From NCBI GenBank assembly GCA_041658445.1, contig JBBAAB010000001.1, positions 1-45,907 on the forward strand: DNA of 45,907 nt. The letters are read 5' to 3'. A program made the position numbers and the translations under genes. Origin of the DNA: Thermoleophilia bacterium (GTDB lineage Bacteria; Actinomycetota; Thermoleophilia; BMS3ABIN01). How positions within the stretch are numbered: position 1 is the stretch's first letter; every line of letters starts with the position of its first letter. Positions 2,777 through 43,326 of the stretch are shown here, in pieces. Below the pieces are notes generated by a model, which did no database searches, was not told the origin of the DNA, and worked only from the letters and a program-made list of their open reading frames with translations.

Positions 2777-2865
2777 GTCCAACGGATGTGAGCTAAGCCG
2801 CTCGCCGAACCCCATCATTCGTGTCGTTGTCGCCAACAAGAGTCGGCTTCAGCGAGTTGTTATAC
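2777..2865 (-). repeat. attC-like site b2 (89 bp)
   Basis: Sense strand: GTATAAC-AACTC-GCT[G]AAGCCG[A]CTC ... GAG CGGCTT AGC-TCACATCC-GTTGGAC. Confidence 0.8.
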
Positions 2866-3044
2866 GGCAGCGCCCCGTGCTTGCGCGCATACCTATACTC
2901 GGCGTAATGAGATAGAACCACGTGCTCCCGCACGTCGTCTTCCCATCCCTCAAACCCACAGAGCACACATGAGCCCTTGGTCTGAAGCAGGCCGCCGTGC
3001 AGATTCTTAGCAATCCAAGCATCAATCCTCTGTCTGATCCTCAT
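2793..3044 (-). CDS. Cassette ORF b2, hypothetical protein
   Basis: AGGAGGAA RBS; ends at the TAG of the attC 3' arm (..RAA*); reads the 5' arm in a different frame (YNNSLKPT). Confidence 0.65.
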   Translation of the reverse strand: MRIRQRIDAWIAKNLHGGLLQTKGSCVLCGFEGWEDDVREHVVLSHYAEYRYARKHGALPYNNSLKPTLVGDNDTNDGVRRAA

Positions 3045-3310: not shown

Positions 3311-3333
3311 CGTTCCCTCCATTCAGGCGTGGC

Positions 3334-3354
3334 GACCGTCGAACTAGTGATTCG
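3334..3354 (-). other. Array-leading junction AATCACTAG|TTCGACGGTCGCC (attI-like site or promoter remnant)
   Basis: The same 11-mer AATCACTAGTT heads array A at 5770-5791. Confidence 0.4.
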
Positions 3355-4005: not shown

Positions 4006-4622
4006 CTTTCGCCTCCTGGCGACCGCCCAACGAGCTGAGCTGCCGGGCCTTTGCAGCGGCAACCGCTGAACATGCACAGCTTCTCTATGGGATGGTGCAC
4101 CGATCTGGGGTGCCCGGCATTGTCAGTTTCAGCGACTTGTTGGGCGGCGGGCTTCTCCTTGAGGGCGGCGCGGGCTTCGTCCAGTCTCATCAGCGCCAAT
4201 GTCGTCTCCGAGGCGTGGGGCCCAAGGTCGGACTCCAACTCCATGTAGGATTCAGCGGCCTTGCGGAACTTCCCCAGCGCCTCGATGCGGGCCACTAGCC
4301 AATCAACCTCCGTCAGCATTACTTCGTATGTGCCCGGCAGGGCCAGGCGATCCTTGATTGTTTGCAGGTTCATGGCTTCTCCTTTGAGGGCGGCACGAAG
4401 GGCGTCGAAGTCCTCTTCGGGAACCGCCACCCATCTGCCGATGAACTTCGGGTCATCGTAGATGATGACACTGCGCCTCAATTGTGCCACCTCCTCCAGC
4501 GCCTCGATGCGGGCTTCCAAGGCGGATACGGCAGCAACGGCCATCCACTTATGATTGCTCTCCCCAGCTACCTCGGCAGCATTGAAACAGTTTGCGACAA
4601 ACTCCGCTATCTTTGGTATCAT
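3954..4622 (-). CDS. Hypothetical coiled-coil protein with a C-terminal Cys/His module; reads through attC a5
   Basis: ATG at 4622. The usual TAG in the attC 3' arm is CAG here, so the ORF runs 24 codons further and overlaps the next gene start. Confidence 0.55.
   Translation of the reverse strand: MIPKIAEFVANCFNAAEVAGESNHKWMAVAAVSALEARIEALEEVAQLRRSVIIYDDPKFIGRWVAVPEEDFDALRAALKGEAMNLQTIKDRLALPGTYEVMLTEVDWLVARIEALGKFRKAAESYMELESDLGPHASETTLALMRLDEARAALKEKPAAQQVAETDNAGHPRSVHHPIEKLCMFSGCRCKGPAAQLVGRSPGGERWMTTGQRLRATVRSRM
4025..4145 (-). repeat. attC-like site a5 (121 bp, Cys/His-module loop, short 3' spacer)
   Basis: Sense strand: GCCCAAC-AAGTC-GCT[G]AAACTG[A]C..GCCGGGC ... GCCCGG CAGCTC AGC-TC-GTTGGGC. 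Confidence 0.7.
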
Positions 4623-4913: not shown

Positions 4914-4939
4914 TCGCTCTCCTCACGGGCGTGGCGACC

Positions 4940-5065
4940 GCCCAACGAGCTGAGCTGCCGGACTCACCACTCGCCAGGCATATCGTCAATGTAGCCCTCA
5001 TCAATGACGTGTTCAAGCATCTGCTTTGCAATTGAAGGCCGGTCAGCTTCAGCGAGTTGTTCGAC
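4940..5065 (-). repeat. attC-like site a3 (126 bp)
   Basis: Sense strand: GTCGAAC-AACTC-GCTGA[A]GCTG[A]CCGG ... CCGG CAGC TCAGC-TC-GTTGGGC. Confidence 0.75.
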
Positions 5066-5182
5066 GGCGAGGCGTCTGGCAACTCTAAACCCAGCCATAA
5101 ACCCGACGCGATGCTGATCTCGCCACCCGCGGCGCCCGGCCTGGCGCTTCCACCATTTGTCAAACTCTTCTGTTGCGGGCAT
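4964..5182 (-). CDS. Cassette ORF a3, hypothetical protein
   Basis: ATG at 5182; reads through the 5' arm (AVEQLAEAD) and stops in the loop. Confidence 0.6.
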   Translation of the reverse strand: MPATEEFDKWWKRQAGRRGWRDQHRVGFMAGFRVARRLAVEQLAEADRPSIAKQMLEHVIDEGYIDDMPGEW

Positions 5183-5205: not shown

Positions 5206-5335
5206 GTTGAACGGATGCGAGCTAAGCTGCCGGGCCTTTGCAGCGGCATCCGCTGAACATGCACAATTTCTCCGTGGGATGATGCAATGATGGGGGGTGC
5301 CCACATTGGCAGGCCCGGTCAGCTTCTTGTTGGGC
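5206..5335 (-). repeat. attC-like site a2 (130 bp, Cys/His-module loop)
   Basis: Sense strand: GCCCAAC-AAG-AAGCTG[A]CCGGGCC ... GGCCCGG CAGCTT AGC-TCGCATCC-GTTCAAC. Positions 5210-5325 are a perfect inverted copy of 10798-10913. Confidence 0.8.
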
Positions 5336-5449
5336 GGCGAGACCGCGGGCATAGCCCGCCTCGAATCCCTTGCGAGAATCAAACTTGTTTGCGTCCTGAT
5401 CCACCTCGGGACTCAGCCACCACTTCTCGAACTCGCTCATCTCGGGCAT
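5222..5449 (-). CDS. Cassette ORF a2, hypothetical protein ending in module RACQCGHPPSLHHPTEKLCMFSGCRCKGPAA
   Basis: GGAGACGAGG RBS; ends at the attC TAG. Confidence 0.65.
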   Translation of the reverse strand: MPEMSEFEKWWLSPEVDQDANKFDSRKGFEAGYARGLAAQQEADRACQCGHPPSLHHPTEKLCMFSGCRCKGPAA

Positions 5450-5472
5450 TTCCTCGTCTCCTTCGGGCGACC

Positions 5473-5561
5473 GTCCAACGGATGTGAGCTAAGCCGCTCG
5501 GCTAACCCTCTTCGACCTGGAACCGCGCTTGGGCCGAGTCGGCTTCAGCGAGTTGTTAGCC
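5473..5561 (-). repeat. attC-like site a1 (89 bp)
   Basis: Sense strand: GGCTAAC-AACTC-GCT[G]AAGCCG[A]CTCGGC ... GCCGAG CGGCTT AGC-TCACATCC-GTTGGAC (15 bp stem, 2 bulges). Confidence 0.85.
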
Positions 5562-5752
5562 CGCTCACCACGGGCAATGTACCGATACGAAATTCCTTCC
5601 TCAAACTTGTAGAGGAAGCATGCGCGCCCGAGACCGTCCACATAGCCAACCTCGGTGGCGTTCTCTGAGACAACGCGGGCAACCTCACCCTTGCTATTGC
5701 CAAAGGCGGAGACCAGGAACTCGATTCTGGGAGCGTCAGTCACCTTCGCCAT
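5489..5752 (-). CDS. Cassette ORF a1, hypothetical protein
   Basis: GAGAGAGGG RBS; ends at the attC TAG (..RAA*). Confidence 0.65.
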   Translation of the reverse strand: MAKVTDAPRIEFLVSAFGNSKGEVARVVSENATEVGYVDGLGRACFLYKFEEGISYRYIARGERANNSLKPTRPKRGSRSKRVSRAA

Positions 5753-5769: not shown

Positions 5770-5791
5770 TGCGGGCTAACTAGTGATTATA
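5770..5791 (-). promoter_or_regulatory. Array-A leading junction TATAATCACTAG|TTAGCCCGC (perfect -10 hexamer abutting the first cassette; attI-like?)
   Basis: Sense TATAAT at 5791-5786, with the cassette boundary 6-7 nt downstream. No good -35. The AATCACTAGTT 11-mer is shared with 3334-3354. Confidence 0.4.
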
Positions 5792-9210: not shown

Positions 9211-9456
9211 ATGGAAGAAGAACGTCCCAATCTACGTCCCAGGTTGAACAAAGCCCTGAGAGAGAACGCCGAACTGAGGAAGCGGCTGGAGTGGCTTGAC
9301 TCCAACTGCGGGTTCTATGTTCGCGAGGGGGGGGAACTTCTTCTGGCTGGCATTGAGTACCGGTGGTTCCCGAAGAGACACAAGACATTGAACGAGGCCA
9401 TTGACGCTGAATTACTGGTGGCTACCGCCGACTTGAAGCCGGAACAGGACGCATAG
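9211..9456 (+). CDS. Hypothetical protein
   Basis: GAGGG RBS; start adjacent to the upstream stop. Confidence 0.55.
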   Translation: MEEERPNLRPRLNKALRENAELRKRLEWLDSNCGFYVREGGELLLAGIEYRWFPKRHKTLNEAIDAELLVATADLKPEQDA

Positions 9457-9467
9457 GGAGTCTGGGC

Positions 9468-9634: not shown

Positions 9635-10006
9635 ATGGACTACACGCCGGGGACGCTGCGGAAGTTGCCGTATGTTCCTCGCCTGCACGAGGAGGATATC
9701 ATGGCCCACGCCGATGCGTGGCAGGCCGACCGCAAGAGGCTGCTTCAGTACGGCCAACACCTTCCGGGCTGTATGGAGCCGGGTCTTGTGGACGAAGACT
9801 GCGCGTGTGGGTGGAGAGAGGCCCGCATGGCCCTCGCGCCCAGCGATACTTCGCAAGCCAAGTCCCCGGAGGGAAACGAGTGGCCACCGAAACGTCTCGT
9901 GATTGACGGGGACAATGATCCGGTTCGAGTTCCATACGAGAACCTGTGTCCCGAATGCAACCGTGTAACCAACGGGCGACGTTGCGCCCACTGCCAAGGA
10001 GAATGA
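9635..10006 (+). CDS. Hypothetical Cys-rich protein
   Basis: GGGGGAGG RBS. Confidence 0.6.
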   Translation: MDYTPGTLRKLPYVPRLHEEDIMAHADAWQADRKRLLQYGQHLPGCMEPGLVDEDCACGWREARMALAPSDTSQAKSPEGNEWPPKRLVIDGDNDPVRVPYENLCPECNRVTNGRRCAHCQGE

Positions 10007-10008
10007 AG

Positions 10009-10626
10009 ATGATCGGCACACCGAAGACTCTCAAGGTTCATGTAAGCCGCAAGCTGGGGGACAACGAATTCGGCTCTTACGGCGTGGATGCAGAACTAGA
10101 GGTAAGCCTTCCCCCCGACGCCAATCGAGACGAGGCGTTTGACGAGAACGACGCGTGGCTGACCGCGGCGGTAGGGCGGAGCATGGCCGAGAAGAAGGCT
10201 TCGATCCAGAAGATGCAGGCAGAGGCGGCCGAGGCAAAGAAGGGGCAGACCGTTGAGGCCGAAGAGGCAGAGACAAAACAAGACAAGCCGAAGGCAGACG
10301 CAAAAGAAGGGGAGGAACTGACGTTCAAGTGTGTCAAGTTCACCCTTGCGAAGCTGCCGGACAAGAAGTTCAAGTTGGAGCTGTACCCGGAGATCAAAGA
10401 CGCGCCAGGCAAGTATCCGACGATCAAGTTCACCGCCGAACGCGAGAAGATGTGGGACATGCTGCATGATGTCGCAGACGACTACGACTTCTCGGACTTG
10501 CCCGTTGAGTATGGTTGTGAATTTCTCGTCCACTACGCCATTGGTAGAGAGTTCGAGATCAAGGCCGGAGAACACAAGGGCGAGAAGTCGCACTACAAGG
10601 ACCTTTTGTCCATCGTTGCCATGTAG
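10009..10626 (+). CDS. Hypothetical acidic/Lys-rich protein
   Basis: AAGGAGA RBS. The G of its TAG stop is the base before the first cassette boundary. Confidence 0.6.
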   Translation: MIGTPKTLKVHVSRKLGDNEFGSYGVDAELEVSLPPDANRDEAFDENDAWLTAAVGRSMAEKKASIQKMQAEAAEAKKGQTVEAEEAETKQDKPKADAKEGEELTFKCVKFTLAKLPDKKFKLELYPEIKDAPGKYPTIKFTAEREKMWDMLHDVADDYDFSDLPVEYGCEFLVHYAIGREFEIKAGEHKGEKSHYKDLLSIVAM

Positions 10627-10658
10627 TTGGGCGGTCGCCACGCCAGAGAGAGGGAACA

Positions 10659-10901
10659 GTGGACATCAACATGGCTTTAGTTGACGAGGCTAGGCGCTAT
10701 CATGGTTTCTGCGGGCACGGGGCAGACTTCGATGTGTGTACGGCGCTTGCCTGCCGTCTAGCGCGGCACATTTTTCTCGCCGCCCAACAAGTCGCTGAAG
10801 CTGACCGGGCCTGCCAATGTGGGCACCCCCCATCATTGCATCATCCCACGGAGAAATTGTGCATGTTCAGCGGATGCCGCTGCAAAGGCCCGGCAGCTTA
10901 G
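10659..10901 (+). CDS. Cassette ORF c1, hypothetical protein ending in the Cys/His module
   Basis: GAGGGAAC RBS then GTG; ends at the attC TAG (..GPAA*). Confidence 0.6.
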   Translation: MDINMALVDEARRYHGFCGHGADFDVCTALACRLARHIFLAAQQVAEADRACQCGHPPSLHHPTEKLCMFSGCRCKGPAA

Positions 10902-10917
10902 CTCGCATCCGTTAGGC
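10782..10917 (+). repeat. attC-like site c1 (136 bp, Cys/His-module loop)
   Basis: GCCCAAC-AAGTC-GCT[G]AAGCTG[A]CCGGGCC ... GGCCCGG CAGCTT AGC-TCGCATCC-GTTAGGC. Confidence 0.85.
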
Positions 10918-10938
10918 GCACCCAGAAGGAGAAGGCCA

Positions 10939-11136
10939 ATGACCAAAGAAGAGGCCCTGGCATCAGTCGAGAAGATCAGGGAAGAGGCGGATGACGATGA
11001 GGTGGCACATTCGCATGAGGATGGTCTGCGCGCCCAGTTCATTGCGCATGTGGCGGAGATGCCCGGCGAGTTGGGCGAGTTGGCCAAGATTGTTCTCTCA
11101 ACGGACGAGATTTCGTTCGGCCGCTGGTGCGCCTAA
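10939..11136 (+). CDS. Cassette ORF c2, hypothetical acidic protein
   Basis: AAGGAGAAGG RBS; the TAA stop lies inside R'' (GCCTAAC). Confidence 0.65.
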   Translation: MTKEEALASVEKIREEADDDEVAHSHEDGLRAQFIAHVAEMPGELGELAKIVLSTDEISFGRWCA

Positions 11137-11218
11137 CAACTCGCTGGAGCGGACGCCTGTTGGCGAGCCGAGTAGATCGTTAGGGTTCGGGGCGCAGCTT
11201 AGCTCCGATCCGTTGGAC
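11131..11218 (+). repeat. attC-like site c2 (88 bp)
   Basis: GCCTAAC-AACTC-GCT[G]GAGCGG[A]CGCC ... GGCG CAGCTT AGC-TCCGATCC-GTTGGAC. Confidence 0.8.
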
Positions 11219-11242
11219 GGTCGCCCGAAGTTGGAGGTTGAA

Positions 11243-11602
11243 ATGCCCGCACCGTATCTGTCTATAGAGGCAATGGCCGCATGGATTGCTCTGGACCGAG
11301 AGAACAATGGTGCCAGCAAGGAGTGGTGGGATTGGGCCGTATCCGCCTATGGTGTCGCCGCCCAACAAGAAGCTGAAGCTGACGTGGCCGTTGGATCGCA
11401 TCTGAAGCGGGTCCTGGAAGATGACGAGATCGTGGGCGAAGGGGGCTCGTTCCACATGGAGCGCATGGACGACGACCACATTTGGTTCCAGGTGGATAGC
11501 ATCGCGTTCGACCTCGATGTGAAGAGGGGCAAACTGTTGTGGAGGCCGCAGTGCAATGGGGGCTGGCCCGCTCTGGCTCTCTTGCTGGGCCACGCAGCTT
11601 AG
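11243..11602 (+). CDS. Cassette ORF c3, hypothetical protein
   Basis: GGAGG RBS; reads through the 5' arm (AAQQEAEAD) and ends at the attC TAG (..GHAA*). Confidence 0.65.
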   Translation: MPAPYLSIEAMAAWIALDRENNGASKEWWDWAVSAYGVAAQQEAEADVAVGSHLKRVLEDDEIVGEGGSFHMERMDDDHIWFQVDSIAFDLDVKRGKLLWRPQCNGGWPALALLLGHAA

Positions 11603-11618
11603 CTCCGGTCCGTTATAC
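11360..11618 (+). repeat. attC-like site c3 (259 bp, long translated loop)
   Basis: GCCCAAC-AAGAA-GCT[G]AAGCTG[A]CGTGG ... CCACG CAGCTT AGC-TCCGGTCC-GTTATAC. Confidence 0.7.
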
Positions 11619-11638
11619 GCACGGAAGATGAGGGTCAA

Positions 11639-11968
11639 ATGGACAACTTGAAAGCATGGATGTTGGAGGCTGCCGACGAGGAGCCAATCCTGGCAGTCGT
11701 GATTGGCGAGATGGGATGGGGCGACTACGGCAGCGATGCTGTGCCCCAGTATCAGGAACAGCGTCGCGGCGAGGTCCTGTCTTGGGACGAGGCCGCCCCG
11801 ATGATCGACTACGAGTTTAGATCGGGGTATGGCGCGCCGAGATGCAATGCGATTGTGGCGTGGACGGCAAGCAAGGTGATCTCGATTTCGCAGTATGACG
11901 GCTCCACGTCGGTGTTCACGCTCCCGCGCAATCCGACCGCACACATGCCCGGCATGCCGGGGGGCTAA
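11639..11968 (+). CDS. Cassette ORF c4, hypothetical protein
   Basis: GAGGG RBS; stops before the attC. Confidence 0.65.
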   Translation: MDNLKAWMLEAADEEPILAVVIGEMGWGDYGSDAVPQYQEQRRGEVLSWDEAAPMIDYEFRSGYGAPRCNAIVAWTASKVISISQYDGSTSVFTLPRNPTAHMPGMPGG

Positions 11969-11977
11969 CGCCCGTGC

Positions 11978-12066
11978 GTATAACAACTCGCTGAAGCCGA
12001 CTCGGCCCAAGCGGGGTTCAAAGTCGAAGAAGGTTGGCCACGCAGCTTAGCTCCGGTCCGTTATAC
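11978..12066 (+). repeat. attC-like site c4 (89 bp)
   Basis: GTATAAC-AACTC-GCT[G]AAGCCG[A]CTCGGCC ... GGCCACG CAGCTT AGC-TCCGGTCC-GTTATAC. Confidence 0.8.
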
Positions 12067-12089
12067 GGCTCCACGCAGGAGGTGGAAAC

Positions 12090-12281
12090 ATGAAGTACAT
12101 CAAGGTCTCTCGGAGCGACATGCCCGGCTCCTATACCGATACCCTAAAGGGGGCGGCGAATTGTGTCGAGGGGGAGTTTGACGGAATTGAGGGGGTGCCA
12201 GTCGGAACGTCTATCACCCTGACGGTGGTCGAGATGTCCGAGGAGGAATACGCCAAGTTGCCGGAGTTCGATGGTTGGTAG
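12090..12281 (+). CDS. Cassette ORF c5, hypothetical acidic protein
   Basis: AGGAGGTGG RBS; stops 2 nt before the R'' extension. Confidence 0.65.
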   Translation: MKYIKVSRSDMPGSYTDTLKGAANCVEGEFDGIEGVPVGTSITLTVVEMSEEEYAKLPEFDGW

Positions 12282-12283
12282 CC

Positions 12284-12310
12284 GTATAACAACTCGCTGG
12301 AGCGGACGCC
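12284..12310 (+). repeat. Truncated attC (5' arm only; deletion derivative of the c2-type site)
   Basis: GTATAAC-AACTCGCTGGAGCGGACGCC is joined directly to the CGCAGTTGGAGGATGAAATG leader. Confidence 0.7.
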
Positions 12311-12327
12311 CGCAGTTGGAGGATGAA

Positions 12328-12738
12328 ATGCCAGCACAAGAAGAGTTCGATTTGGAGTTCTCACGCCGAGGGAATTATGGGACGCCCAAGACGGTCTGCC
12401 GGACATGGTATGAGTTGGGATGGTTTGCCTCACGGCGCGCCGCCCAACAAGAAGCTGACCGGTGCCCAGACCGCGGAGAGGAGGCATGGCGCGCAGTGTT
12501 GGATTTGTGCGAGCCTCTACGGCCCGACGAGACAGGAATTGGAAGGCTGTTGGGCATTCGTGCGTGGGCGCTTTCGGCGCTTGCAGAACTAGAGCCCGAC
12601 AAACAGTGTGCCTGCGGTCGAGAGGGTTCGCTAGACCACGAGGACTTCTGCATGCCCAAGGGGATGTGGCCGAGGCATTGGATAACGGGGGGGGCTATAG
12701 ACCCCGATGCCGCCCCCAAGGAGAAGCCCAATGGCTAA
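12328..12738 (+). CDS. Hypothetical protein containing an orphan attC 5' arm (12438-12463)
   Basis: GGAGGATGAA RBS; internal CGCCGCCCAACAAGAAGCTGACCGG is translated as AAQQEADR. Confidence 0.6.
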   Translation: MPAQEEFDLEFSRRGNYGTPKTVCRTWYELGWFASRRAAQQEADRCPDRGEEAWRAVLDLCEPLRPDETGIGRLLGIRAWALSALAELEPDKQCACGREGSLDHEDFCMPKGMWPRHWITGGAIDPDAAPKEKPNG

Positions 12739-13009: not shown

Positions 13010-13407
13010 GTGAACTAGAGGCATTCTTCGGGCCGTCAGAGGGAGCCAGTCATATGCCGGATCATGTCCGACGCACCTCCTGGCCGCGTCAGCCGGAACA
13101 TCTAAGGCGTATCCTGGATGTGTTTCAACAGGAGGCCGGGTTTGAGCCGATTGGCGTCCTGAAACAAACATGGATTGCCGGCGCCAAGGCATGGCACTCT
13201 GTATTCGGTGAAAACACCTCTCTATTGATAATGGCCATTGAGTACATGAGACAGAAGGAGTTGATGATTGCCTCTCCGAGGTCGTGTATTACAGTGGCCT
13301 TAGAGTTACAACGTAAGGGAGAGGGGCAGAGTAAGGCCGACTACTTCCGCGAATATGCCAAGAAGTTAGACGCTGCCGCGGACTTGGAAGTAGACGAGGA
13401 AGACTAA
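13006..13407 (+). CDS. Hypothetical protein
   Basis: ATGA coupling; GGGGAGG RBS. Confidence 0.6.
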   Translation: MSELEAFFGPSEGASHMPDHVRRTSWPRQPEHLRRILDVFQQEAGFEPIGVLKQTWIAGAKAWHSVFGENTSLLIMAIEYMRQKELMIASPRSCITVALELQRKGEGQSKADYFREYAKKLDAAADLEVDEED

Positions 13408-13422
13408 GGAGTCTGGGCGACT

Positions 13423-27899: not shown

Positions 27900-29039
27900 C
27901 TACGCCGTGGTCAGGAAGGTGTTTACGTTGCTGTGAGCCTTCTCAAAAGCCACGACTAGACCGTACTCTCCGACAACCTCACCATACCCACCGGGGGCCG
28001 AGTCACCAAGCTTGCCGAGTTCCTCATAGAAGAAGTCGTCAATCGTGATGAACCCAACGTACCGACGGTCGATGAGCCACAGGAAGTTCGTCGGGCAGTG
28101 GCGGTCCACAACCACGTCGATTTCCCCGCCAGCAATGGGATTAATCATCTTGTCGATGACAATTCCACCGCGGGTCTCGTCGCGCTCGGTGCGGACGTAG
28201 CCATCGAAGAAGCTGCCGATCTTGCGCTTCGCCCAGGAGTTGCACAGGATCAAGTCCGGTGAACCCCCGGCGTCAAAGCACTGTTGAACCTCGTCCTCGA
28301 TCATCTTCTGCGTCAGAGCCGCCGAAGAGGCCGAAGACGGGTTCGTGGTGACGAAGGCTGCCAGCCCGCCAAGAGAACGCGGGGTCGAGGTCGTGCCAAC
28401 CGCGCGCTGCCCGTGGTAGAGGCTGAGGTTCAGCTTCATGAGCAACTCGTCCATGGCCTTGTCGATCTCGCGCTCCACAACGCCCGAAATCCCGTACTGC
28501 GGGATCAGGGCGTTCGTGCGGGAAACGTTGATCGGCTTCTGAAGGATGGCCGAGTAGTTGTATCCGGTCGTCGGCTCGGTGAAGCCGTTGTTCGTGCCAA
28601 CGGCCGCACCTTCCAGGCGCGAGTTGTACCGGATGTACACGGTGGACGTTGAGGCGTGGGTCGCCTGCGTCCCGCCAAAGTCACGGGTAACGGTCAGCGT
28701 GTTCGTGCTGATGGCCGAAACCCACATGTACTCCGAGTCAATCTGGATCACGTCACCGATATTGAACTTCGTTCCGTCCGTCATCGCGATTGTGGTCGTG
28801 GTCGTAACGGAGGTCAGATTCACATCGGCAGCGGTGTCCGAGCGCAAGAGGTAAGTGTCCTCAAGCCACTCGTAGGACCGACCCGGAGTGTTTACGAACG
28901 AGAACTTGCTTTCATTGTGCAGCCCCAGAGCATTCAGGCCCGCGATACTCATCGGGTCGGCTAGAATGATCCGGTCTGTCACCATCCGCTTCTGCGGAAG
29001 CGTGGCAGAGTATGACTGCTGGATTCCTTGCCCGGCCAT
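27900..29039 (-). CDS. Major capsid protein, HK97 fold (SU10-MCP/DUF5309-like)
   Basis: 379 aa, downstream of the scaffold. YEWLED and TVTRDFGGT-type motifs are recalled from the SU10 capsid family. Confidence 0.8.
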   Translation of the reverse strand: MAGQGIQQSYSATLPQKRMVTDRIILADPMSIAGLNALGLHNESKFSFVNTPGRSYEWLEDTYLLRSDTAADVNLTSVTTTTTIAMTDGTKFNIGDVIQIDSEYMWVSAISTNTLTVTRDFGGTQATHASTSTVYIRYNSRLEGAAVGTNNGFTEPTTGYNYSAILQKPINVSRTNALIPQYGISGVVEREIDKAMDELLMKLNLSLYHGQRAVGTTSTPRSLGGLAAFVTTNPSSASSAALTQKMIEDEVQQCFDAGGSPDLILCNSWAKRKIGSFFDGYVRTERDETRGGIVIDKMINPIAGGEIDVVVDRHCPTNFLWLIDRRYVGFITIDDFFYEELGKLGDSAPGGYGEVVGEYGLVVAFEKAHSNVNTFLTTA

Positions 29040-36661: not shown

Positions 36662-38518
36662 TCATACCGGCATCTCCGCAGAGTTTCCAGCGCGTGTCTC
36701 CCCGGTCTGTTGCTCCATGATGTTGGCGTTGGGGTTCATCTGCGCCGGAGGGGTACCGCCCATGGCCGGGTTCATACCCATCCCCTCGGCTCCCTGCATA
36801 CCAGGCGTTCCAGTTGCCGGAGGGGCGCCCATCGCCCCGGAGACTTCGGGGGCCATTCCCTGCTGCTGTTGCATGGCCTGTTGGAGCATCCCCTGCGCCA
36901 TTTGAGCAGCCAACTGTTGGAGTTCTCCAGAGGCTTCGGCTTGAATCTTGGTGACGATGCCCTGGAGTTCAGCCATGTCGAACTGCTCTCGCATCCAGTC
37001 GTCCTTGAGACCTTCTGGGTCGGAGTATCCGAGTTCCTCGTACACCTTCCGCAGAGGAACGTTGGCCTGCTTCGCCAACAGGGTCGCGGCGTTGACCTTC
37101 TGGAGCCTGTCCGTCGGAGTTCCGGGAACCAATTCCACTCGGATGCGGATGTTGTCCGGGTCAATCTCGTCCGAGTCCAGCGTGTACATTTCCTTCTCGC
37201 CGCTCTTTCCTACGGTGTAGCCCTTCAGGTCCTCGCCCGAATAGTGGCACCACAGGAGCATCAACTCGTAAGCCTTCTCCCACCATCTCTCACCCTCGCG
37301 CTTGAACGGCAGTAGTTGCCCAATGGCAGACTGCATTCGGAGGTTGTATCCAGAGTAGCTTTCCCCAGGATTGGCCTCAACGTTCATCAGGATTGGAGGC
37401 ACGGAGGCCGAGGCCATCAGTCCTTCAAAATACTGCCACGCCTCCTTCATCGCCGGGTCAAGGGGGTGGTCCTGCATGTCCAACACATCGTTGGGCGACG
37501 TAACCTCGTACTCAATTCCCGGTTCGGAGAAGTTGGTCTTGACGCTTGACGGATTGGGGCCAATCTTCTTCCTCTTGGCTCGCCCCATCTCTGCAATCGC
37601 CTGCGAGATTACCAGCGTACCGAGGATGTTCGTGGTCTCCCACGTCTGCCCCGCCCACAGGGGATGCAAAAGCCCGTGTCTCTGATACTTGGCATCACTC
37701 TCCAGGGCCGTCCCGCCAACCACTGCCGCCCACGGAAGGAATGGGTATTCATTCTCTCTCGGGGGCATAATCACGTAGGCCGGAGAACCGCCAGCTGTCC
37801 GGTCCTCGGCGTCCCCCTGCATGACCCATACCGCACGGGAGTCGTGGTCCATGTAGTCGTACAAAACACAATCTTCATACCAATCATCTTCGTCGTCTTC
37901 AATGTCGTTTCGCAGGTCCTTTGCGGCATCGCCCCAGAAGTCCACGACTTCCTTCTTGGTCATCACGGCGACTCTGAGAACTTCCTCAAGCATGTAGTCC
38001 GAATGGGTGGCGTGGACCTGTTGCGGGTTTGGCAGAACCACCGCAAACGGACCATCTCTAAGGGCGGCGATCTGCCTTCGCGGGTTCCCGCCCATCGACT
38101 TGATTGCTTTGATCTGCGTCGGAAGGTGGACTACCTGCCCCACAATCTCGTCGTACAGCAGGGCCGACCCGATAACGTCCTCTCGGGAAGACGCCCGTCT
38201 CCTCATGGCAAGGTCCATGTTCCACTGGAGAACGCTCTCGACCTTGTGCGACCACCTTCGGGCTTCGTCGGAGTTGTCCATCGGGTCACAAGTTATAACC
38301 TCGTTCATCCCCGACAGGACCCTTCGCCCGGCCTTGAAGGCAAGATATGGGGTGGCGCTAATCAGCCTTCGTACCCAATCCAGACTCGCAAGACTGTCCG
38401 GAAGGACGTACTCGAAGTGGATCATTTCGTCCGTCTTCAACTGTTGATCTCGAAGGTCTTTGTCCCTCTCGAACAGGGCATTCGCCAGGCCGAGATAGTA
38501 GTCTAGTTTACGGACCAT
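36662..38518 (-). CDS. Portal protein
   Basis: 618 aa immediately downstream of and overlapping TerL; Gln/Met/Gly-rich C-terminus. Confidence 0.7.
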   Translation of the reverse strand: MVRKLDYYLGLANALFERDKDLRDQQLKTDEMIHFEYVLPDSLASLDWVRRLISATPYLAFKAGRRVLSGMNEVITCDPMDNSDEARRWSHKVESVLQWNMDLAMRRRASSREDVIGSALLYDEIVGQVVHLPTQIKAIKSMGGNPRRQIAALRDGPFAVVLPNPQQVHATHSDYMLEEVLRVAVMTKKEVVDFWGDAAKDLRNDIEDDEDDWYEDCVLYDYMDHDSRAVWVMQGDAEDRTAGGSPAYVIMPPRENEYPFLPWAAVVGGTALESDAKYQRHGLLHPLWAGQTWETTNILGTLVISQAIAEMGRAKRKKIGPNPSSVKTNFSEPGIEYEVTSPNDVLDMQDHPLDPAMKEAWQYFEGLMASASVPPILMNVEANPGESYSGYNLRMQSAIGQLLPFKREGERWWEKAYELMLLWCHYSGEDLKGYTVGKSGEKEMYTLDSDEIDPDNIRIRVELVPGTPTDRLQKVNAATLLAKQANVPLRKVYEELGYSDPEGLKDDWMREQFDMAELQGIVTKIQAEASGELQQLAAQMAQGMLQQAMQQQQGMAPEVSGAMGAPPATGTPGMQGAEGMGMNPAMGGTPPAQMNPNANIMEQQTGETRAGNSAEMPV

Positions 38519-40136
38519 GTGTCGCTCCTAAACTTGCAAACGGGTTCTTTTGCTTCTTCGGCGCAAACCACGGAGACGGAACATCCGTGCTTGCCTCGGT
38601 TGGGATCAGGAACAGCCCCGCCGCTGCCAATGCGTAGTAGACGGCATCCAGGGTGTCATCGTGCGTCTTCTGGGTCCCGTCCCACGAAACCCACTCATCT
38701 CTGAATGCGGTGAGGAATGGCGTCGCCCCATCGGATACCCACACGCGGGAGAACTCGAAGTGCTTGGCCATCACGCTTTCAAATCGGAAGCCCTTGGACC
38801 TTCCCTGGGTTCTGAGGGGGATGACAGGGAGGGTTCCAATGGATGCCAATTGATTGTAGAACTCCTCCCCCTTACCATCCATCTCGACACCGATGTTTAC
38901 AAGCGTCGGGTACATGTACGCGTACGCGCGAACCTTGGCCTCCGCCTCTCCTCTTGAAAGTCGCTCTCGAATGCCGTCCTGAATGACCAGTCCCCCGCTG
39001 GGCATTCCTCTCACTACCGCGAGGCCGAAGTAGTCCCTGCCCTTGTCCCTCAGATGGTCGGATGTGGAGGCGTAGTCAATTCCGAAGTACGTCGGCCATG
39101 TCGAGCCAATGCGCTCTGGAGGAAAGTCGTGCAGCCACTCCCGCTTGAGGTTCATTCCCTCGGCAGCCGTCAGGTCAAGCATGTATGCTTTTGCGAAGCC
39201 CTTGGCCCCGGACTTCCTGTACGCCTTGGCGATTCTCTCCGGGCCGAACTTCTCCGGCCACGCCGGTTTGGCCCAAACGGAGTAGGCCACAATCCCATCG
39301 TCGGCCACTTCGATGTATTCTGCCCCCTCGTCCTTCTTGTCGCAAATCTTCATCACGGGGGTCTTGACCCATCGGTAAACCCCGGTCCCCTTGGCCAAAG
39401 CCAGAGCGTCGTTTCTGGTCCACGGGGTCTGGCAGAAGGTGTGCCAAAGCCCAGGGTCCTCGGTGATCGGGTAGAGAGTGTCGGTCAGAATGGCGTTGAC
39501 CTCAATGTTTCTGGCGTCAGACCGCGTGTTCTTGTCGGTGTTGATGTCGTCAATCGCCAGCAACCCAGTAGGATGGGAGCCCGTCAAGACGGTATCCGTA
39601 TATCCAACTCCAACCAGAGTTGGGTCCTTGGCCCTCAACTGTTGCCAGTCTGCCTCCCGGTCCTTGTCGATTACCCAGTACCCCTGCGCCCCCCAGCCCT
39701 TCGCCTCATCCGGAACGACGTTGCGGAAGAACAGCCTCCAAGATGGGTTTCTGGTAATGATGTCCGCAACATTCCCGGAGTGTTTGGCCGCCTGCTTGTC
39801 GTCTCCCTGAACGAACAGGTTGGACTTATGTGGCTCCAGCCCGATCCTGTACGCGGTGAACGTCTCCGTTAGTGTCGTGGTCTTGGTCGAGCCGCGGAAC
39901 GCCTCGGCCCCAAAGAACATGTCCTGCTCTCGGGCCGCATACAGTGCGGCAACCCACTCCCTACAGTGTCTTGGAAGAGGCCGGTGCCGGACAAGCTCGT
40001 AGAACACACGGAAGCCGTCCGGGCTGTCTTCTCGGACCATTGCCTTCGCTTGCTCTACAACTTCGGTCTTCTCCGTAAGTTCTCCCTTGCGGGCCTCGCG
40101 GACAAAGCGCCGAATGATCTCCTCTGCCCTATCCAA
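38508..40136 (-). CDS. terL: Terminase large subunit
   Basis: ATPase-like FRGSTKTT segment and C-terminal nuclease-like FGIDYASTSD..LAVV motifs. TTG start with a GGAGGA RBS. Confidence 0.8.
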   Translation of the reverse strand: MDRAEEIIRRFVREARKGELTEKTEVVEQAKAMVREDSPDGFRVFYELVRHRPLPRHCREWVAALYAAREQDMFFGAEAFRGSTKTTTLTETFTAYRIGLEPHKSNLFVQGDDKQAAKHSGNVADIITRNPSWRLFFRNVVPDEAKGWGAQGYWVIDKDREADWQQLRAKDPTLVGVGYTDTVLTGSHPTGLLAIDDINTDKNTRSDARNIEVNAILTDTLYPITEDPGLWHTFCQTPWTRNDALALAKGTGVYRWVKTPVMKICDKKDEGAEYIEVADDGIVAYSVWAKPAWPEKFGPERIAKAYRKSGAKGFAKAYMLDLTAAEGMNLKREWLHDFPPERIGSTWPTYFGIDYASTSDHLRDKGRDYFGLAVVRGMPSGGLVIQDGIRERLSRGEAEAKVRAYAYMYPTLVNIGVEMDGKGEEFYNQLASIGTLPVIPLRTQGRSKGFRFESVMAKHFEFSRVWVSDGATPFLTAFRDEWVSWDGTQKTHDDTLDAVYYALAAAGLFLIPTEASTDVPSPWFAPKKQKNPFASLGATHGP

Positions 40137-40788
40137 GAATGTCCTCCAGCCTCACGCGCGGGTAGGCGCGTAACTCCCCGCCAATTCCCGCGTTGGCAAT
40201 CTTGACGCCCCGCTTTTGGCACTCCTGCATTGCAATACCGTGGGCCTCTTCTAACACCCGGTTCCACCTTCTTGCCTGTTCGGCCTTGTAGGCGTCTGGG
40301 GGGAGGTATCCTCTAATGAACCAGTTCTGATTGTCGGCGTCTCTGTAGCCGAGGTCACACCCAACCACGTAGAGTTCGTCGTATCCCATACGTACGGCCA
40401 ACTGGATGGCCATAAGAGCCGACCCCCCAAAACGACATAGTTGCGGGAGGTGCCACGGCCCGCCCCATTGTTCTGGTTGGGTCGAGTCCATTGGTGACAT
40501 GTGCTCACAGACGACCTCTCGGTGTAGATTTGGACGATCCGGAACGTCGCATTCTATGTCGTCTCGGATGAAACACTCCTCGCCCCAGTCCAGGTGTTTT
40601 ACGATGTCCTCTTGCCAGACCCCTTGACTCTGCCTCGTTCTGTCGAACGCACACCAGTATGTCGGGCGCCACCGGGTTTTAGGATAGAGAAGATGTATCC
40701 TGTTCAGCCCGAACGTTACTTCGTCCGCGAGTCTATCCATCGGAGTTCTGTTCAGGCTTGGCCCATTGCCAATTACGAAGCAGCGCAC
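40129..40788 (-). CDS. GNGPSL glycosyltransferase paralog A (CstII/Maf-like)
   Basis: VRCFVIGNGPSL (GTG start, GGAGGAAG RBS), YVVGCDLGY. Confidence 0.6.
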   Translation of the reverse strand: MRCFVIGNGPSLNRTPMDRLADEVTFGLNRIHLLYPKTRWRPTYWCAFDRTRQSQGVWQEDIVKHLDWGEECFIRDDIECDVPDRPNLHREVVCEHMSPMDSTQPEQWGGPWHLPQLCRFGGSALMAIQLAVRMGYDELYVVGCDLGYRDADNQNWFIRGYLPPDAYKAEQARRWNRVLEEAHGIAMQECQKRGVKIANAGIGGELRAYPRVRLEDILG

Positions 40789-41450
40789 ACTTCCTCCAGA
40801 GAAGCCCGTGGATAGACCTCCAGCGCCCCGCCAACGCCGGCGTTCATAATCACAATGCCGCGGTCGATGCACTCCCTGTTCGCAAGCTCGTGCGCGTACG
40901 CCTGCGCTCCGGTTAGATACGCCGCCCACTCGGGGTCGTAGGGGCGGAAGTTGAAGTAGTCCTCAGAGAAGTGGTTGTTCTCCCCCGGACGGTAAATCAG
41001 GTCACACCCCAACAGATAGACTTCGTCAAACCCCATCGTGACGGCCAGTTGAATTGTCGTCAGGACGGAACCTCCAAAGACGCACAGTTGCGGCAGGTGC
41101 CACGACTTCGGCCACCACTCCCCATGCCCAATTCTCGTCCCGTGCTCCATGCACAGGTCCATCTTTTCAAACCTTGCGGTCGGCTGAATGTCCCAAACCC
41201 CCATCCTGGTAAAGTGCCTCGGGGCGATGAAACAATGCTCCCCGAGGTCCCGGTGCAGGAAGAACAACTCCGCCCACTCGTCTATCGGCATCTGCAAGTC
41301 CCTGTCTGTGCAGACCCAGTATGTTGGCCGCCACTTGGTTAGCGGGTAGATCAGATGGCATTGGTTGACGCCGAAGGACACCTCGTTGACCAAGAGATTC
41401 AGATTCGTCTTTGCCAGCGAAGGCCCATTCCCTAGAACGAAGCAGCGCAT
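40773..41450 (-). CDS. GNGPSL glycosyltransferase paralog B
   Basis: MRCFVLGNGPSL, YLLGCDLIY, ENNHFSEDY. Confidence 0.65.
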   Translation of the reverse strand: MRCFVLGNGPSLAKTNLNLLVNEVSFGVNQCHLIYPLTKWRPTYWVCTDRDLQMPIDEWAELFFLHRDLGEHCFIAPRHFTRMGVWDIQPTARFEKMDLCMEHGTRIGHGEWWPKSWHLPQLCVFGGSVLTTIQLAVTMGFDEVYLLGCDLIYRPGENNHFSEDYFNFRPYDPEWAAYLTGAQAYAHELANRECIDRGIVIMNAGVGGALEVYPRASLEEVCAAS

Positions 41451-42151
41451 ACTTCCTCAAGGCTGACCCTCGGGTAGACATCCAAAGACCCGCCGACCGT
41501 GGCGTTGAACACCCAGACCCCGTGCTCCTTGCACCACCTGGCAATCAGATCGTGCATCGCACTCCCCAACTCGTTGTTGAACTTCGCTCTGTCTTCAGTG
41601 TGTATCTCCAAGTTGGCCTCGTAAGCACGGTCGAAGTGGTTCGTGTCTTCGTCCCCCTCTAGTACGTGCCAGTCCAGATCACAACCAACCAGATACAGTT
41701 CGTTGTATCCCATCTTGATTGCTTGCTGCATCATCGGCCCCATGCCGGTTCCGAGTTTGCACAGAACCCCGTCCTCTTTCGGGAAGCACCACTCTTCGGG
41801 CCAGTCCTTCCCTGGAGAGGCGCAGAGGTGGTCAACGTGGAACTGCCACGGGTGAACCCACTCCGGCAGTTCCTCCAGCCACGCGACTGGGTGCGACCGC
41901 CACTTCCCAAGAAGCTGTTCGCATATGTCAGCCCTGACATAGCACTCCTCCCCGGAGACAATGTGGGAGATTAGGGCCTCGCGGTCATCCTCTCTTTGGG
42001 GGAGATCGGACCACATGAAGTACGTCGGCCTCCAGTTGGTCTTCGGATACATAAGGTGAATGCGGTTCATCCCGAAGGACGGTTCTCCCGCAATCATGTT
42101 TAGATTGGTCCGGTTCAGGCTCGGACCGTTCCCCACAAGGAACATTCTCAT
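41432..42151 (-). CDS. GNGPSL glycosyltransferase paralog C
   Basis: MRMFLVGNGPSL, YLVGCDLDW, DTNHFDRAY. Confidence 0.65.
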   Translation of the reverse strand: MRMFLVGNGPSLNRTNLNMIAGEPSFGMNRIHLMYPKTNWRPTYFMWSDLPQREDDREALISHIVSGEECYVRADICEQLLGKWRSHPVAWLEELPEWVHPWQFHVDHLCASPGKDWPEEWCFPKEDGVLCKLGTGMGPMMQQAIKMGYNELYLVGCDLDWHVLEGDEDTNHFDRAYEANLEIHTEDRAKFNNELGSAMHDLIARWCKEHGVWVFNATVGGSLDVYPRVSLEEVCAASF

Positions 42152-42675
42152 GCGCGTTCAAACACCGCCATGTTGCCGCTCATGGTTACGAGCCGCCAGT
42201 CGCTTTCCGTCTTGGCGTTCTCGACGGCTTTCTCCACCGGGCTTCCCTCGTTGCAGTCATGGAACAGGATGAACCTCTTGGTGATGTCCTTTACGTTGTT
42301 CCAGTCGTTTATTGGAGCATCGCCCTCGTGGTCTCCGTCGATGAACGAGACAACAGGTTTGATGTCTCCAGCGGGAAACGGGTGCGAGTTCTGGTAGAAC
42401 ACCTTGTACGGAAGCCCGAGCCCAAGCATCAGCTTCTCGATCTCTGGCTTCCAGCCAAGCCCGTTCTCAATGCCGTAGATACTGCCGCCCTGCTTCAGAT
42501 GCCGCTTGATGAGCCCGGCGAAGGCAAGACTTCCGCCGCGGTTCACGCCGATCTCAAGATAGTCTCCGTCGCCCGCCTCCAAGATGCACGCCTCCAGGGC
42601 GAACTTCTCCTCGGGGGCCATGAGCCACCCCTTTGTTCCGTTACGGTAGAGTTCGTTCAGGCCGTCCAGGATCAT
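42148..42675 (-). CDS. Class I SAM-dependent methyltransferase (Methyltransf_24/TylF-CmcI-like), paralog 1
   Basis: GDGDYLEIGVNRGGS (SAM-binding loop) and FIDGDHEGD. Confidence 0.65.
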   Translation of the reverse strand: MILDGLNELYRNGTKGWLMAPEEKFALEACILEAGDGDYLEIGVNRGGSLAFAGLIKRHLKQGGSIYGIENGLGWKPEIEKLMLGLGLPYKVFYQNSHPFPAGDIKPVVSFIDGDHEGDAPINDWNNVKDITKRFILFHDCNEGSPVEKAVENAKTESDWRLVTMSGNMAVFERA

Positions 42676-43208
42676 TTGCGCCTCTCAAACAGGGCCATGT
42701 TTCCCGTCCCGATAATGTAGTTCCATGCGGGGTCCTTCTGGCATACTTCCTCGACGGCCCTCTTTACTCCTGGGTGGGTGTGGAAGTCATGTAGCAGGAT
42801 GAACCTCCCCGTTCTGGCACTAAGGTTTCTCCAGTCTTTCACGACCCACTCGCGCGCGTGGTCTCCATCTATCAGGGCAACGACGGGTCTCAGGTCTCCC
42901 GCGGGCCACGGGTCAGAGTTGGCCTCGATAGCCTCGATCTCTACATTGAACTCTGCCGCGTGCTTCACAACCAGGTCGAACCCCGAATGCTTGTTCTGGA
43001 AGTTGTCTATCCCGTATATTTTCCCAGACTGTCCCAATCGTCTCTTGAGTAGACCAACGAAGATGGCGCTTCCGCCTTGTTGAATCCCAATTTCCAGGTA
43101 GTCCCCATCGCCGGCCTCTAAGACGGCGCACTCTAGGGACATCACGTCGTCGGGCTCCATCGTGAACCCGTAGAACCCCAGCTTGTCCTTGACCTCGTGG
43201 AAGATCAC
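42672..43208 (-). CDS. Class I SAM-dependent methyltransferase, paralog 2 (GTG start inferred by alignment)
   Basis: GDGDYLEIGIQQGGS and LIDGDHARE. The start was chosen so that the length matches paralog 1. Confidence 0.55.
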   Translation of the reverse strand: MIFHEVKDKLGFYGFTMEPDDVMSLECAVLEAGDGDYLEIGIQQGGSAIFVGLLKRRLGQSGKIYGIDNFQNKHSGFDLVVKHAAEFNVEIEAIEANSDPWPAGDLRPVVALIDGDHAREWVVKDWRNLSARTGRFILLHDFHTHPGVKRAVEEVCQKDPAWNYIIGTGNMALFERRK

Positions 43209-43326
43209 CTGTTCGCCTTCCACGCCTTCTTGAGGTTCTTCATTCGGGTCTTCGCAATCTCCTCTTGCCTCTTTCGTTCTGCCGCCTGAACTGCTTGCGC
43301 CTTCTGTAGGTTCGCGTCCCTTACTC

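Follow-up and report, generated by a model that had tools for sequence, protein, structure and literature searches.

Probable integron-type attC sites in two divergent arrays in the early-gene regions of an integrase-less phage

Phages are known to carry clusters of attC sites lacking integron integrases (CALINs): 17 were reported in 10,705 phage genomes, with two or three predicted attC sites per phage in the supplementary table of that survey, and IntI1 recombines attC sites of virulent phages (Qi et al. 2023, PMC9892861). In attC sites of integrons, the extrahelical base that comes first is 'usually a G' and a conserved T stands at the far position, a stem of 6 bp being required between the two (Nivina et al. 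2016, PMC5027507). We analysed a contig of 45,907 nucleotides (JBBAAB010000001.1, assembly GCA_041658445.1), hereafter the window, which is deposited at NCBI inside a metagenome-assembled genome (MAG) named 'Thermoleophilia bacterium'. A preliminary description had read the interval 5473-5561 as the stem of an attC site, kept by selection on structure. According to our results, this element is very probably (we put it at about 85%) a genuine integron-type attC, one of 12 complete and four truncated sites that form two divergent CALIN-type arrays in the early-gene regions of a complete phage without an integrase. What we observed, and what carries this reading, is the anatomy of the sites, the covariation of their stems, the linkage of their class to bacterial integron integrases, the complementarity of the cassette ends around a G|TT crossover and the mosaicism of cassettes among related phages.

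Anatomy of the sites and of the cassette ends

The arms of the repeat are easily recognized. In the window, we counted 11 copies of the 5' arm motif AACAASTCGCTGRARCNGAC versus 0.00 expected, and 12 of the 3' arm motif CRGYTYAGCTC versus 0.12 expected. All these matches fall within two arrays, each match being oriented as its array, and in both arrays the top strand of the repeat is the coding strand. The left array runs from 5780 to 1940 on the minus strand and holds eight complete sites (L1, L2, L3, L5, L6, L7, L9 and L10); the right array runs from 10626 to 12467 on the plus strand and holds four (R1 to R4). The complete sites measure 88 to 259 nt and are accompanied by four truncated ones (L4, L8, R5 and R6) and by three solo R' boxes. 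The interval 5473-5561 turned out to be exactly one site, L1, on the minus strand. Read along its top strand, L1 begins at 5561 with the R'' box GGCTAAC, followed by the spacer AACTC and by the arm GCT[G]AAGCCG[A]CTCGGC, in which brackets mark bulged bases; beyond the loop come GCCGAG, CGGCTT and AGC, the spacer TCACATCC and, ending at 5473, the R' box GTTGGAC.

The same plan is found along both arrays, and it matches the R'' and R' boxes, the 5-nt spacer, the stem of 3 bp plus 6 bp and the two bulges of attC sites. The AAC of R'' and the GTT of R' are invariant in the 12 complete sites. The full R'' consensus RYYYAAC fits seven of them and the full R' consensus GTTRRRY fits eight, the remainder showing one deviation each. 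On the R'' side the spacer is 5 nt long in 11 sites (AAGTC, AACTC or AAGAA), and in L2 a 6-nt deletion leaves AAG; on the R' side it measures either 8 nt (TCGCATCC and similar) or 2 nt (TC). The two bulges lie exactly 6 bp apart. It had been proposed that the stem always has both, as in GCT[G]NNNNNN[A]C; this stands for 11 of the 12 window sites and for all 29 aligned sites of the phage lineage, and fails in L2, which has lost the first bulge and keeps that of the A only. On the bottom strand, the far extrahelical base is a conserved T (A on top) and the near one is a C in every site, as the preliminary description had it; the pattern with which sites were collected from databases fixed the first extrahelical base, so that the invariance of this C among the collected sites is built in; bona fide integron integrase genes are found next to sites with this C in bacteria. 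Site-specific extension stems follow, and those that had been listed (CTCGGC/GCCGAG, CGTGGCC/GGCCACG and CCGGGCC/GGCCCGG) were all seen. Loops range from 13 to 240 nt. The arms presumably parallel those of attCaadA7, which we take to read T-CGGCTT-G-AAC where the window has T-CGGCTT-C-AGC. An Rfam scan of the window matched no family, Rfam having no attC family.

The strongest evidence comes from the ends of the cassettes. When a crossover between the G and the TT of R' opens a circular cassette, the attC of this cassette is split; R'' is then expected to complement the R' that forms the 5' end of this cassette, which is that of the previous site in the array, rather than the one now lying downstream of R''. 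For the window, perfect complementarity of R'' to the own-cassette R' was observed in 9 of 13 cases (mean 0.31 mismatches) versus 4 of 12 for the adjacent R' (mean 1.42 mismatches), and none of 20,000 trials with random partners reached the observed complementarity total. The related phage contigs give 13 perfect matches out of 15 versus 5 out of 17. The most telling case is L1 itself, whose unusual R'' GGCTAAC exactly complements the solo box GTTAGCC at 5774-5780; this box therefore marks the start of the left array. The match of R'' with the R' of its own cassette is the signature of insertion by a G|TT crossover, and we therefore conclude that the arrays were built from circularisable cassettes through an attC-type crossover.

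Covariation, strand and relatives of the sites

The three co-varying states that had been described for the L box are correct and can be mapped to eight named sites: AAGCTG/CAGCTT in L2, L6, R1 and R3, AAACTG/CAGTTT in L9 and L10, and AAGCCG/CGGCTT in L1 and L7. It had also been stated that pairing is kept across more than 160 nt, and the arms of L9, L10 and R3 are indeed 170, 170 and 212 nt apart. The L box of the four other sites is mismatched on the top strand (L3 AAGCTG/CAGCTC, L5 AAACTG/CAGCTC, R2 GAGCGG/CAGCTT and R4 AAGCCG/CAGCTT). However, each variant state in the window represents one sequence lineage, as the arms of L1 and L7 are identical including their private spacer, and L9 and L10 are identical in the core. 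The window alone therefore gives at most two compensatory L-box events, and its double changes amount to only two at each of two pairs. Thus, the alternative raised at the outset, namely that three states merely reflect three duplications, applies in part inside the window, and independence comes only from related phages and bacterial arrays. Covariation from the window alone is suggestive, not decisive.

We measured it at three scales, with shuffles as a control. In an arms-only alignment of the 12 window sites, 87.1% of the cells are paired versus 80.0 +/- 1.4 after column shuffling, and the covariation score is 0.209 versus 0.102 +/- 0.019, neither value being reached by any of the 500 shuffles; sliding the partner by one to three columns left 23-42% of the cells paired. 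With 29 sites of the phage lineage, pairing rises to 90.6% versus 80.8 +/- 0.9 and the score to 0.302 versus 0.136 +/- 0.013, again reached by 0 of 500 shuffles. In this set, changes on both sides occur at four of the six L-box pairs, and five perfectly paired states are found, GAATTG/CAATTC and GAGCGG/CCGCTC being added to the three of the window; the latter, present in related phage contigs, is the compensated form of the R2 L box. Finally, a family set of 103 unique sites from 56 sources, in which the 3' arm was anchored by AGCTC...GTT independently of L', gives 91.3% paired cells versus 75.0 +/- 0.7 and a score of 0.393 versus 0.111, and this holds with one site per genome locus. Its fifth L pair is T-A in 38 sites, C-G in 23 and G-C in 19. 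The covariation thus exceeds the controls at each scale and is strong once more sites are added, in agreement with the proposed selection on structure. Covariation of the stem and two bulged bases are a textbook property of attC, and as such add nothing new to integron biology.

We then considered which strand is folded, the preliminary description having allowed for either single-stranded DNA or RNA. Fold stability, by which it had suggested comparing the strands, did not discriminate between them: single-stranded DNA energies differ little and inconsistently, the bottom strand being more stable in 7 of the 12 sites and R3 strongly favouring the top. For R1, the fold of the bottom strand is the complete canonical hairpin and comprises the R box (-32.4 kcal/mol, z -2.84). 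In L1, the minimum-free-energy fold is not the canonical hairpin (z -0.6 bottom, -0.5 top) and only the centroid shows the L and extension stems. The mismatches are more informative. In L3, L5 and R4, every L-box mismatch is an A.C or C.A on the top strand and a G.T wobble on the bottom strand, and six out of six standard pairs are counted in the L box of 11 of the 12 sites on the bottom strand versus 8 on the top. In the family set, the L box shows 23 bottom-strand wobbles versus 7 top-strand ones (binomial p = 0.005), or 18 versus 4 for the bacterial sites taken alone, and the extension stem shows no such bias. Since sites within arrays are not independent, this bias is supportive rather than conclusive. 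Together with the G|TT cassette ends, it narrows the initial ambiguity in favour of bottom-strand DNA. No stem followed by a T-run, as expected of a terminator, coincides with any site.

The class extends well beyond the window. The 5' arm motif was found in four contigs of IMG/VR, in a few metagenome fragments of related phages and at more than 115 bacterial and archaeal genome loci, where it often forms multi-site arrays (these contigs and loci are labelled below by L and three digits). Scans of IMG/VR with the 15-mer of R' plus leader and with the 3' arm pattern yielded, beyond the four contigs L001-L004, only chance matches without a partner arm. The class occurs in Chloroflexota, Acidobacteriota, Planctomycetota, Spirochaetota, Nitrospirota and other phyla. 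Although the window is deposited in a Thermoleophilia MAG, the bacterial sites that we found to be closest to its own are from MAGs of Chloroflexota (Chloroflexia and Anaerolineae), Coriobacteriia and Acidobacteriota. Three of its sites, at 864, 1524 and 1950, were also seen in L038, a contig binned as an Asgard archaeon (Candidatus Odinarchaeota MAG, JBHLQA010000219.1). Moreover, sites of the class adjoin, in divergent orientation, genes whose products exceed the 265-bit cut-off of the NCBIfam model TIGR02249 ('integron integrase'): 451 bits in L072, a Planctomycetota MAG, and 388 bits in L044, a Spirochaetota MAG with five sites. Matches to IntI1, by tblastn alone, were found in four other fetched loci (L021, L085, L089 and L110), and a product in L099 scored 182 bits, under the cut-off. 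Because the class adjoins genes for TIGR02249 integrases, the assignment to attC does not depend on resemblance alone.

These features can be combined in a model. In single-stranded DNA, the bottom strand would fold into a hairpin comprising the paired R boxes with their AAC/GTT core, an unpaired central spacer, the L-box stem with its extrahelical C and T, the site-specific extension stem and a variable loop. An integron integrase supplied by the host would recognize the shape of this hairpin and not its sequence, and would exchange strands between the G and the TT of R'. We propose that, as a consequence of such recognition, a mutation in one arm would be tolerated only if the other arm changed to compensate for it, or if it left a G.T wobble in the bottom-strand stem. 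Presumably, the sites are still recombined in this phage, and by a host integrase.

The phage, its cassettes and competing explanations

An exact terminal overlap of 127 bp (bases 1-127 are identical to 45781-45907) indicates a circular or terminally redundant complete genome of about 45.78 kb. Given this overlap and the genes for a large terminase (TerL), a portal, a capsid protein and a lysin (Table 1), the window is therefore a complete tailed-phage genome. The phage was probably binned with, or infects, a Thermoleophilia bacterium. The strand of the genes switches near 7 kb, where promoter-like sites point both ways and the cumulative GC skew has its minimum. As judged from sequence comparison, it has no close relative among GenBank phages: blastn with the left array gave no match there, and TerL matches were at most 29% identical; a search of IMG/VR for relatives through TerL found none. 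The arrays comprise eight plus four complete sites, and the 45.8-kb genome contains no IntI-like sequence. Since the phage lacks a tyrosine recombinase, the arrays are CALINs, and any recombination must use a host enzyme. A complete integron, with intI, attI and Pc (the cassette promoter) beside the array, does not fit, as no tyrosine recombinase was detected and the arrays begin at solo R' boxes abutting phage genes; that of the right array shares its first base with the end of the stop codon of the open reading frame (ORF) 9946-10626. Hairpin elements of the REP/RAYT (repetitive extragenic palindromes with their transposase) or IS200/IS605 (insertion sequence) type were also discarded: no Y1 (HUH) transposase domain was present in the 30 ORFs scanned with Pfam, namely most ORFs of at least 180 aa and ten cassette ORFs, and the hairpins show the attC architecture instead.

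Table 1. Coordinates of the attC sites, boxes and other features of the window, and of related cassette genes
Feature	Position	Strand	Remarks
Solo R'-type box GTTAGCC	5774-5780	-	delimits the first left-array cassette on its 5' side; perfect complement of L1 R'' GGCTAAC
Cassette ORF	5489-5752	-	87 aa, orphan; last 23 codons and TAG stop within attC L1
attC L1 (flagged site)	5473-5561	-	89 nt; imperfect inverted repeat; AAGCCG/CGGCTT
attC L2	5206-5335	-	130 nt; AAGCTG/CAGCTT; 5' arm without TCGCTG, A bulge only; loop codes for a Cys/His-rich peptide
attC L3	4940-5065	-	126 nt; AAGCTG/CAGCTC; one A.C on top, one G.T on bottom; short 3' spacer (TC)
Truncated L4	4698-4730	-	R'' GCCCAAC and degenerate 5' arm within an ORF; no 3' arm
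attC L5	4025-4145	-	121 nt; AAACTG/CAGCTC; two A.C on top, two G.T on bottom; loop 87% identical to that of L2
Solo R' with leader, GTTCGAC GGTCGCC	3331-3344	-	5' boundary of a cassette; R' is the perfect complement of L6 R'' GTCGAAC
attC L6	3067-3187	-	121 nt; AAGCTG/CAGCTT
attC L7	2777-2865	-	89 nt; AAGCCG/CGGCTT; arms identical to those of L1
Truncated L8	2595-2627	-	R'' and partial 5' arm (…GCTGAAGCTTGG), no 3' arm; in frame within a 154-aa ORF
attC L9	2276-2486	-	211 nt; AAACTG/CAGTTT; arms 170 nt apart; loop codes for a zinc-ribbon-like peptide
attC L10	1940-2156	-	217 nt; AAACTG/CAGTTT; arms 170 nt apart; final site of the left array
Solo R' with leader, GTTGGGC GGTCGCC	10626-10639	+	start of the right array; perfect complement of R1 R'' GCCCAAC
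attC R1	10782-10917	+	136 nt; AAGCTG/CAGCTT
attC R2	11131-11218	+	88 nt; GAGCGG/CAGCTT; L box mismatched on both strands
attC R3	11360-11618	+	259 nt; AAGCTG/CAGCTT; arms 212 nt apart; coding loop
attC R4	11978-12066	+	89 nt; AAGCCG/CAGCTT; C.A on top, G.T on bottom; chimera
Truncated R5	12284-12307	+	R2-type 5' arm running straight into the next ribosome-binding site; hairpin deleted
Truncated R6	12439-12467	+	R'' GCCCAAC and L2-type 5' arm; no 3' arm
R' with GGTCGCC leader	2269-2282, 2770-2783, 3331-3344, 4018-4031, 4933-4946, 5466-5479	-	
R' with GGTCGCC leader	10626-10639, 11212-11225	+	
Paralogous cassette proteins	5222-5449, 4964-5182	-	
Paralogous cassette protein	12328-12738	+	
Paralogous cassette proteins, contig L004	848-1174, 1215-1598, 2211-2447		
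Paralogous cassette protein, contig L237	1380-1704		
LAGLIDADG and HNH homing endonucleases	349-786, 44830-45372	-	near the distal end of the left array
SU10-type major capsid protein	27900-29039	-	
Portal protein	36662-38518	-	
Large terminase (TerL)	38508-40136	-	
Block of diverged tandem paralogues	40129-43439	-	includes two Methyltransf_24 genes; repeat families D7, D13, D18 and D19
GH25 lysin			encoded in the phage genome

The cassettes have features of their own. A leader, GGTCGCC, directly follows R' (GTTGGRC|GGTCGCC) eight times in the window versus 0.89 expected. Phage contigs alone have it behind R' (the window, L001, L002, L004 and L232-L237), all 83 bacterial sites of the class being devoid of it; it lengthens the R-box pairing by about 3 bp and sits before the ribosome-binding site. 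Seven small cassette proteins are paralogous, with 31-42% identity. Their N-terminal part of about 45 aa (MP..EF.KWW...G[FWY]..) ends in AAQQ(LA)EAD, coded by the attC 5' arm, and their variable, often Cys/His-rich C-terminus is coded by the attC loop, the stop being a TAG inside L'; the loop therefore acts as a swappable coding module. The protein of 109 aa encoded between R3 and R4 (11639-11968, plus strand) gave 99 hits; its own exact copy left aside, the other 98 are 41-73% identical to it. Homologues were examined at eight phage-like loci (L120-L123 and L239-L242), where they lie in tightly packed operons with no attC-like flanks, so that this looks like a common phage gene that is a cassette only in this lineage. 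Searched as a bacterial integron cassette, the ORF of the L1 cassette proved to be an orphan. In L237, a cassette at 415-960 encodes a putative N6-adenine/N4-cytosine DNA methyltransferase-like protein, its DPPY motif having been read by eye. A 47-nt direct repeat, unrelated to that of attC, is present in three copies (family D12; 1576-1622, 9421-9467 and 13372-13418, plus strand; 72-74% identity to the reference copy); it spans the end of an ORF, the stop codon and the next ribosome-binding site (…GACTTGAAG…TAAGGAGTCTGRGC).

Cassettes are distributed as a mosaic among the related phages. The attC L7 is 95% identical in L004 and L236, where the flanks are unrelated, and the cassette 11194-11390 follows an L1-type attC in L004, the similarity switching at the 3' arm/R'. 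The left-array cassette 2793-3044 sits in L237 within an array that leads into homologues of the right-arm genes of the window; there it carries a 60-nt attC of the GAGCGG type (336-395) versus the 89-nt L7, of the AAGCCG type, in the window, and the switch lies inside the conserved 5' arm. Within the window, the 5' arm and most of the loop of R4 match L1, and its 3' extension, L' and spacer match R3; the extension stem is broken, and the breakpoint lies in the loop and not at G|TT. R5 (12284-12330, compared with 11131-11245, plus strand) looks like an R2-type attC from which the whole hairpin has disappeared between the direct repeats GGACGCC, of the 5' arm, and GGTCGCC, of the leader. This deletion resembles a slippage promoted by the hairpin.

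Some of these results, and others, weigh against the interpretation as integron attC sites. The near extrahelical base is C and not the usual G. Although nine of the 12 sites measure 88-136 nt, L9, L10 and R3, with 211, 217 and 259 nt, exceed the quoted range of 57-141 bp. The short sites have a weak thermodynamic signal (z about -0.5 to -1.5), and folding is about equal for the top and bottom strands. A tblastn of the window with three IntI sequences (IntI1 and two verified MAG integrases) reached an E-value of 0.08 at best, and Pfam detected no tyrosine recombinase in the 30 ORFs to which it was applied. A pure exchange by integrase does not predict that the same cassette ORF carries different attC sites in two phages. 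Finally, the arrays include four truncated sites, a chimera joined in mid-loop and a site whose L box is broken on either strand; this means that some of the sites are decaying, and that recombination not due to an integrase acts on them.

A different history could account for such damage. The sites would descend from attC but would now be homology or hairpin linkers, through which general recombination and slippage shuffle, fuse and delete early genes without an integrase, like the boundary sequences and stem-loops proposed for other phages. A phage devoid of integrase would suit this scenario, as would the R4 breakpoint within the loop, the R5 deletion between GGACGCC and GGTCGCC, the different attC of the 2793-3044 homologue in L237 with its switch inside the 5' arm, and the phage-specific leader, which extends the repeat past attC. 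We nevertheless find it doubtful, if well worth considering, because homologous recombination leaves unexplained why R'' of one site matches R' of the preceding one, why compensatory changes keep distant arms paired and why mismatches are biased towards bottom-strand wobbles. The two processes are not mutually exclusive. The arrays are shaped by both site-specific and general recombination, and some of their sites are decaying.

A role of the hairpins in the mRNA, whose sequence is that of the top strand, as intercistronic stem-loops stabilising transcripts, directing their processing or tuning translation of the next gene, seems improbable to us. It is true that every site belongs to a transcription unit of its own orientation and precedes a strong ribosome-binding site by 10-25 nt, that folding is about equally good for the two strands, and that attC hairpins are reported to affect the translation of downstream cassettes. 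However, the L-box mismatches are mostly A.C, and thus unpaired, in the RNA sense and G.T on the bottom DNA strand; U-tract terminators coincide with no site, and Rfam was not matched. Besides, the complementarity of the R boxes tracks the ends of cassettes and not the local hairpin, and the class is tied to integron integrases; the hairpins may have a secondary role in RNA. It is even harder to believe that the repeat is conserved as the code for a recurring peptide (AAQQ[VL]AEAD ... AA*) of paralogous small proteins and not for its structure, even if seven cassette proteins have in common an N-terminal domain closing with AAQQ(LA)EAD, from the 5' arm, and finish in ..AA, from L'. Translation crosses the 5' arm in two frames, which give AAQQVAEAD and NNSLKPT, the latter (NNSLKPT or NNSLERT) in L1, L7, R2 and R4; its conservation is therefore at the nucleotide level, which excludes conservation of the peptide as the cause. 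Moreover, past the TAG stop the 3' arm is non-coding yet conserved, changes in the arms compensate each other with unrelated effects on the amino acids, and bacterial arrays with unrelated ORFs share the same arms.

Returning to integron-type attC sites, one may go further and suggest, quite tentatively and as an unlikely rather than a favoured extension, that a small phage lineage keeps its own cassette pool. Early genes would be held as circularisable cassettes with a phage-specific attC and GGTCGCC leader, loops would supply C-terminal modules, resident genes such as that of the 109-aa protein would have been turned into cassettes, and host integrases would be borrowed to swap early or counter-defence genes among these phages and with the integrons of hosts. 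Should this prove true, the origin of cassettes and attC sites could be followed here in a natural setting. Provided that the sites are active, phages would carry and exchange integron cassettes to a substantial extent and would organise their own early genes in that form. Bacterial integrons have recently been found to stockpile anti-phage defence cassettes, and phage early genes organised as cassettes would mirror this. The arrays also offer a natural test of two questions, namely the replacement of the usual extrahelical G by C and the tolerance of long protein-coding loops in attC.

Comparison with known systems

The sites of the window share with integron attC sites, such as attCaadA7 and the VCR (Vibrio cholerae repeat), the R'' and R' boxes, the 5-nt spacer on the R'' side and a variable terminal structure. 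They also share two extrahelical bases 6 bp apart on the bottom strand, in the arm opposite the AAC triplet and with T as the far one, as well as their place in co-oriented arrays, where they close promoterless ORFs on the 3' side, covariation and the complementarity of cassette ends. They differ in having C as the near extrahelical base, 'usually a G' elsewhere (PMC5027507), and in the length of the three longest sites (211-259 nt versus 57-141 bp). In addition, the loops of at least six window sites are protein-coding, in frame with the upstream ORF, the 3' spacer measures 2 or 8 nt, and intI, attI and Pc are not present in cis.

Sedentary chromosomal integrons likewise contain many cassettes, mostly small ORFs of unknown function, with highly similar and lineage-typical attC sites. 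As in these integrons, the bottom strands would lie on the leading-strand template, should replication start at the GC-skew minimum at about 7 kb. The arrays described here are borne by a virus and not by a chromosome, several of their sites are degenerate, and they form two arrays that diverge from an early promoter region, unlike the single array downstream of intI and attI. Mosaic-boundary repeats of phages, such as the promoter-early stem-loops of T4, are also short repeated stem-loops between small early genes, at places where related phages differ in content. To our knowledge, these stem-loops have neither the architecture of R boxes, L boxes and extrahelical bases, nor a link to integron integrases, nor complementary cassette ends.

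The closest systems are the phage CALINs, which are also clusters of attC sites without intI in tailed phages without an integrase gene, with small cassettes of unknown function (PMC9892861). The methyltransferase-like DPPY cassette of L237 is of a cargo type highlighted there, and Polaribacter phage P12002L of the same survey also has divergently oriented sites (PMC9892861). In Tetrasphaera phage TJE1, another published phage CALIN, a scan with a strict generic attC regular expression found nothing. Unlike the two or three sites per phage of that survey (PMC9892861), the window has 12 complete and four truncated ones in two arrays; these sites form one homogeneous class, common to only about four of 2.9 million IMG/VR contigs, and carry the phage-specific GGTCGCC leader after R'. 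What is unusual is the setting: a complete phage without an integrase contains about 16 attC sites that are homogeneous and whose cassette-end signatures are intact, and fragments of related phages have the same cassettes in different arrays.

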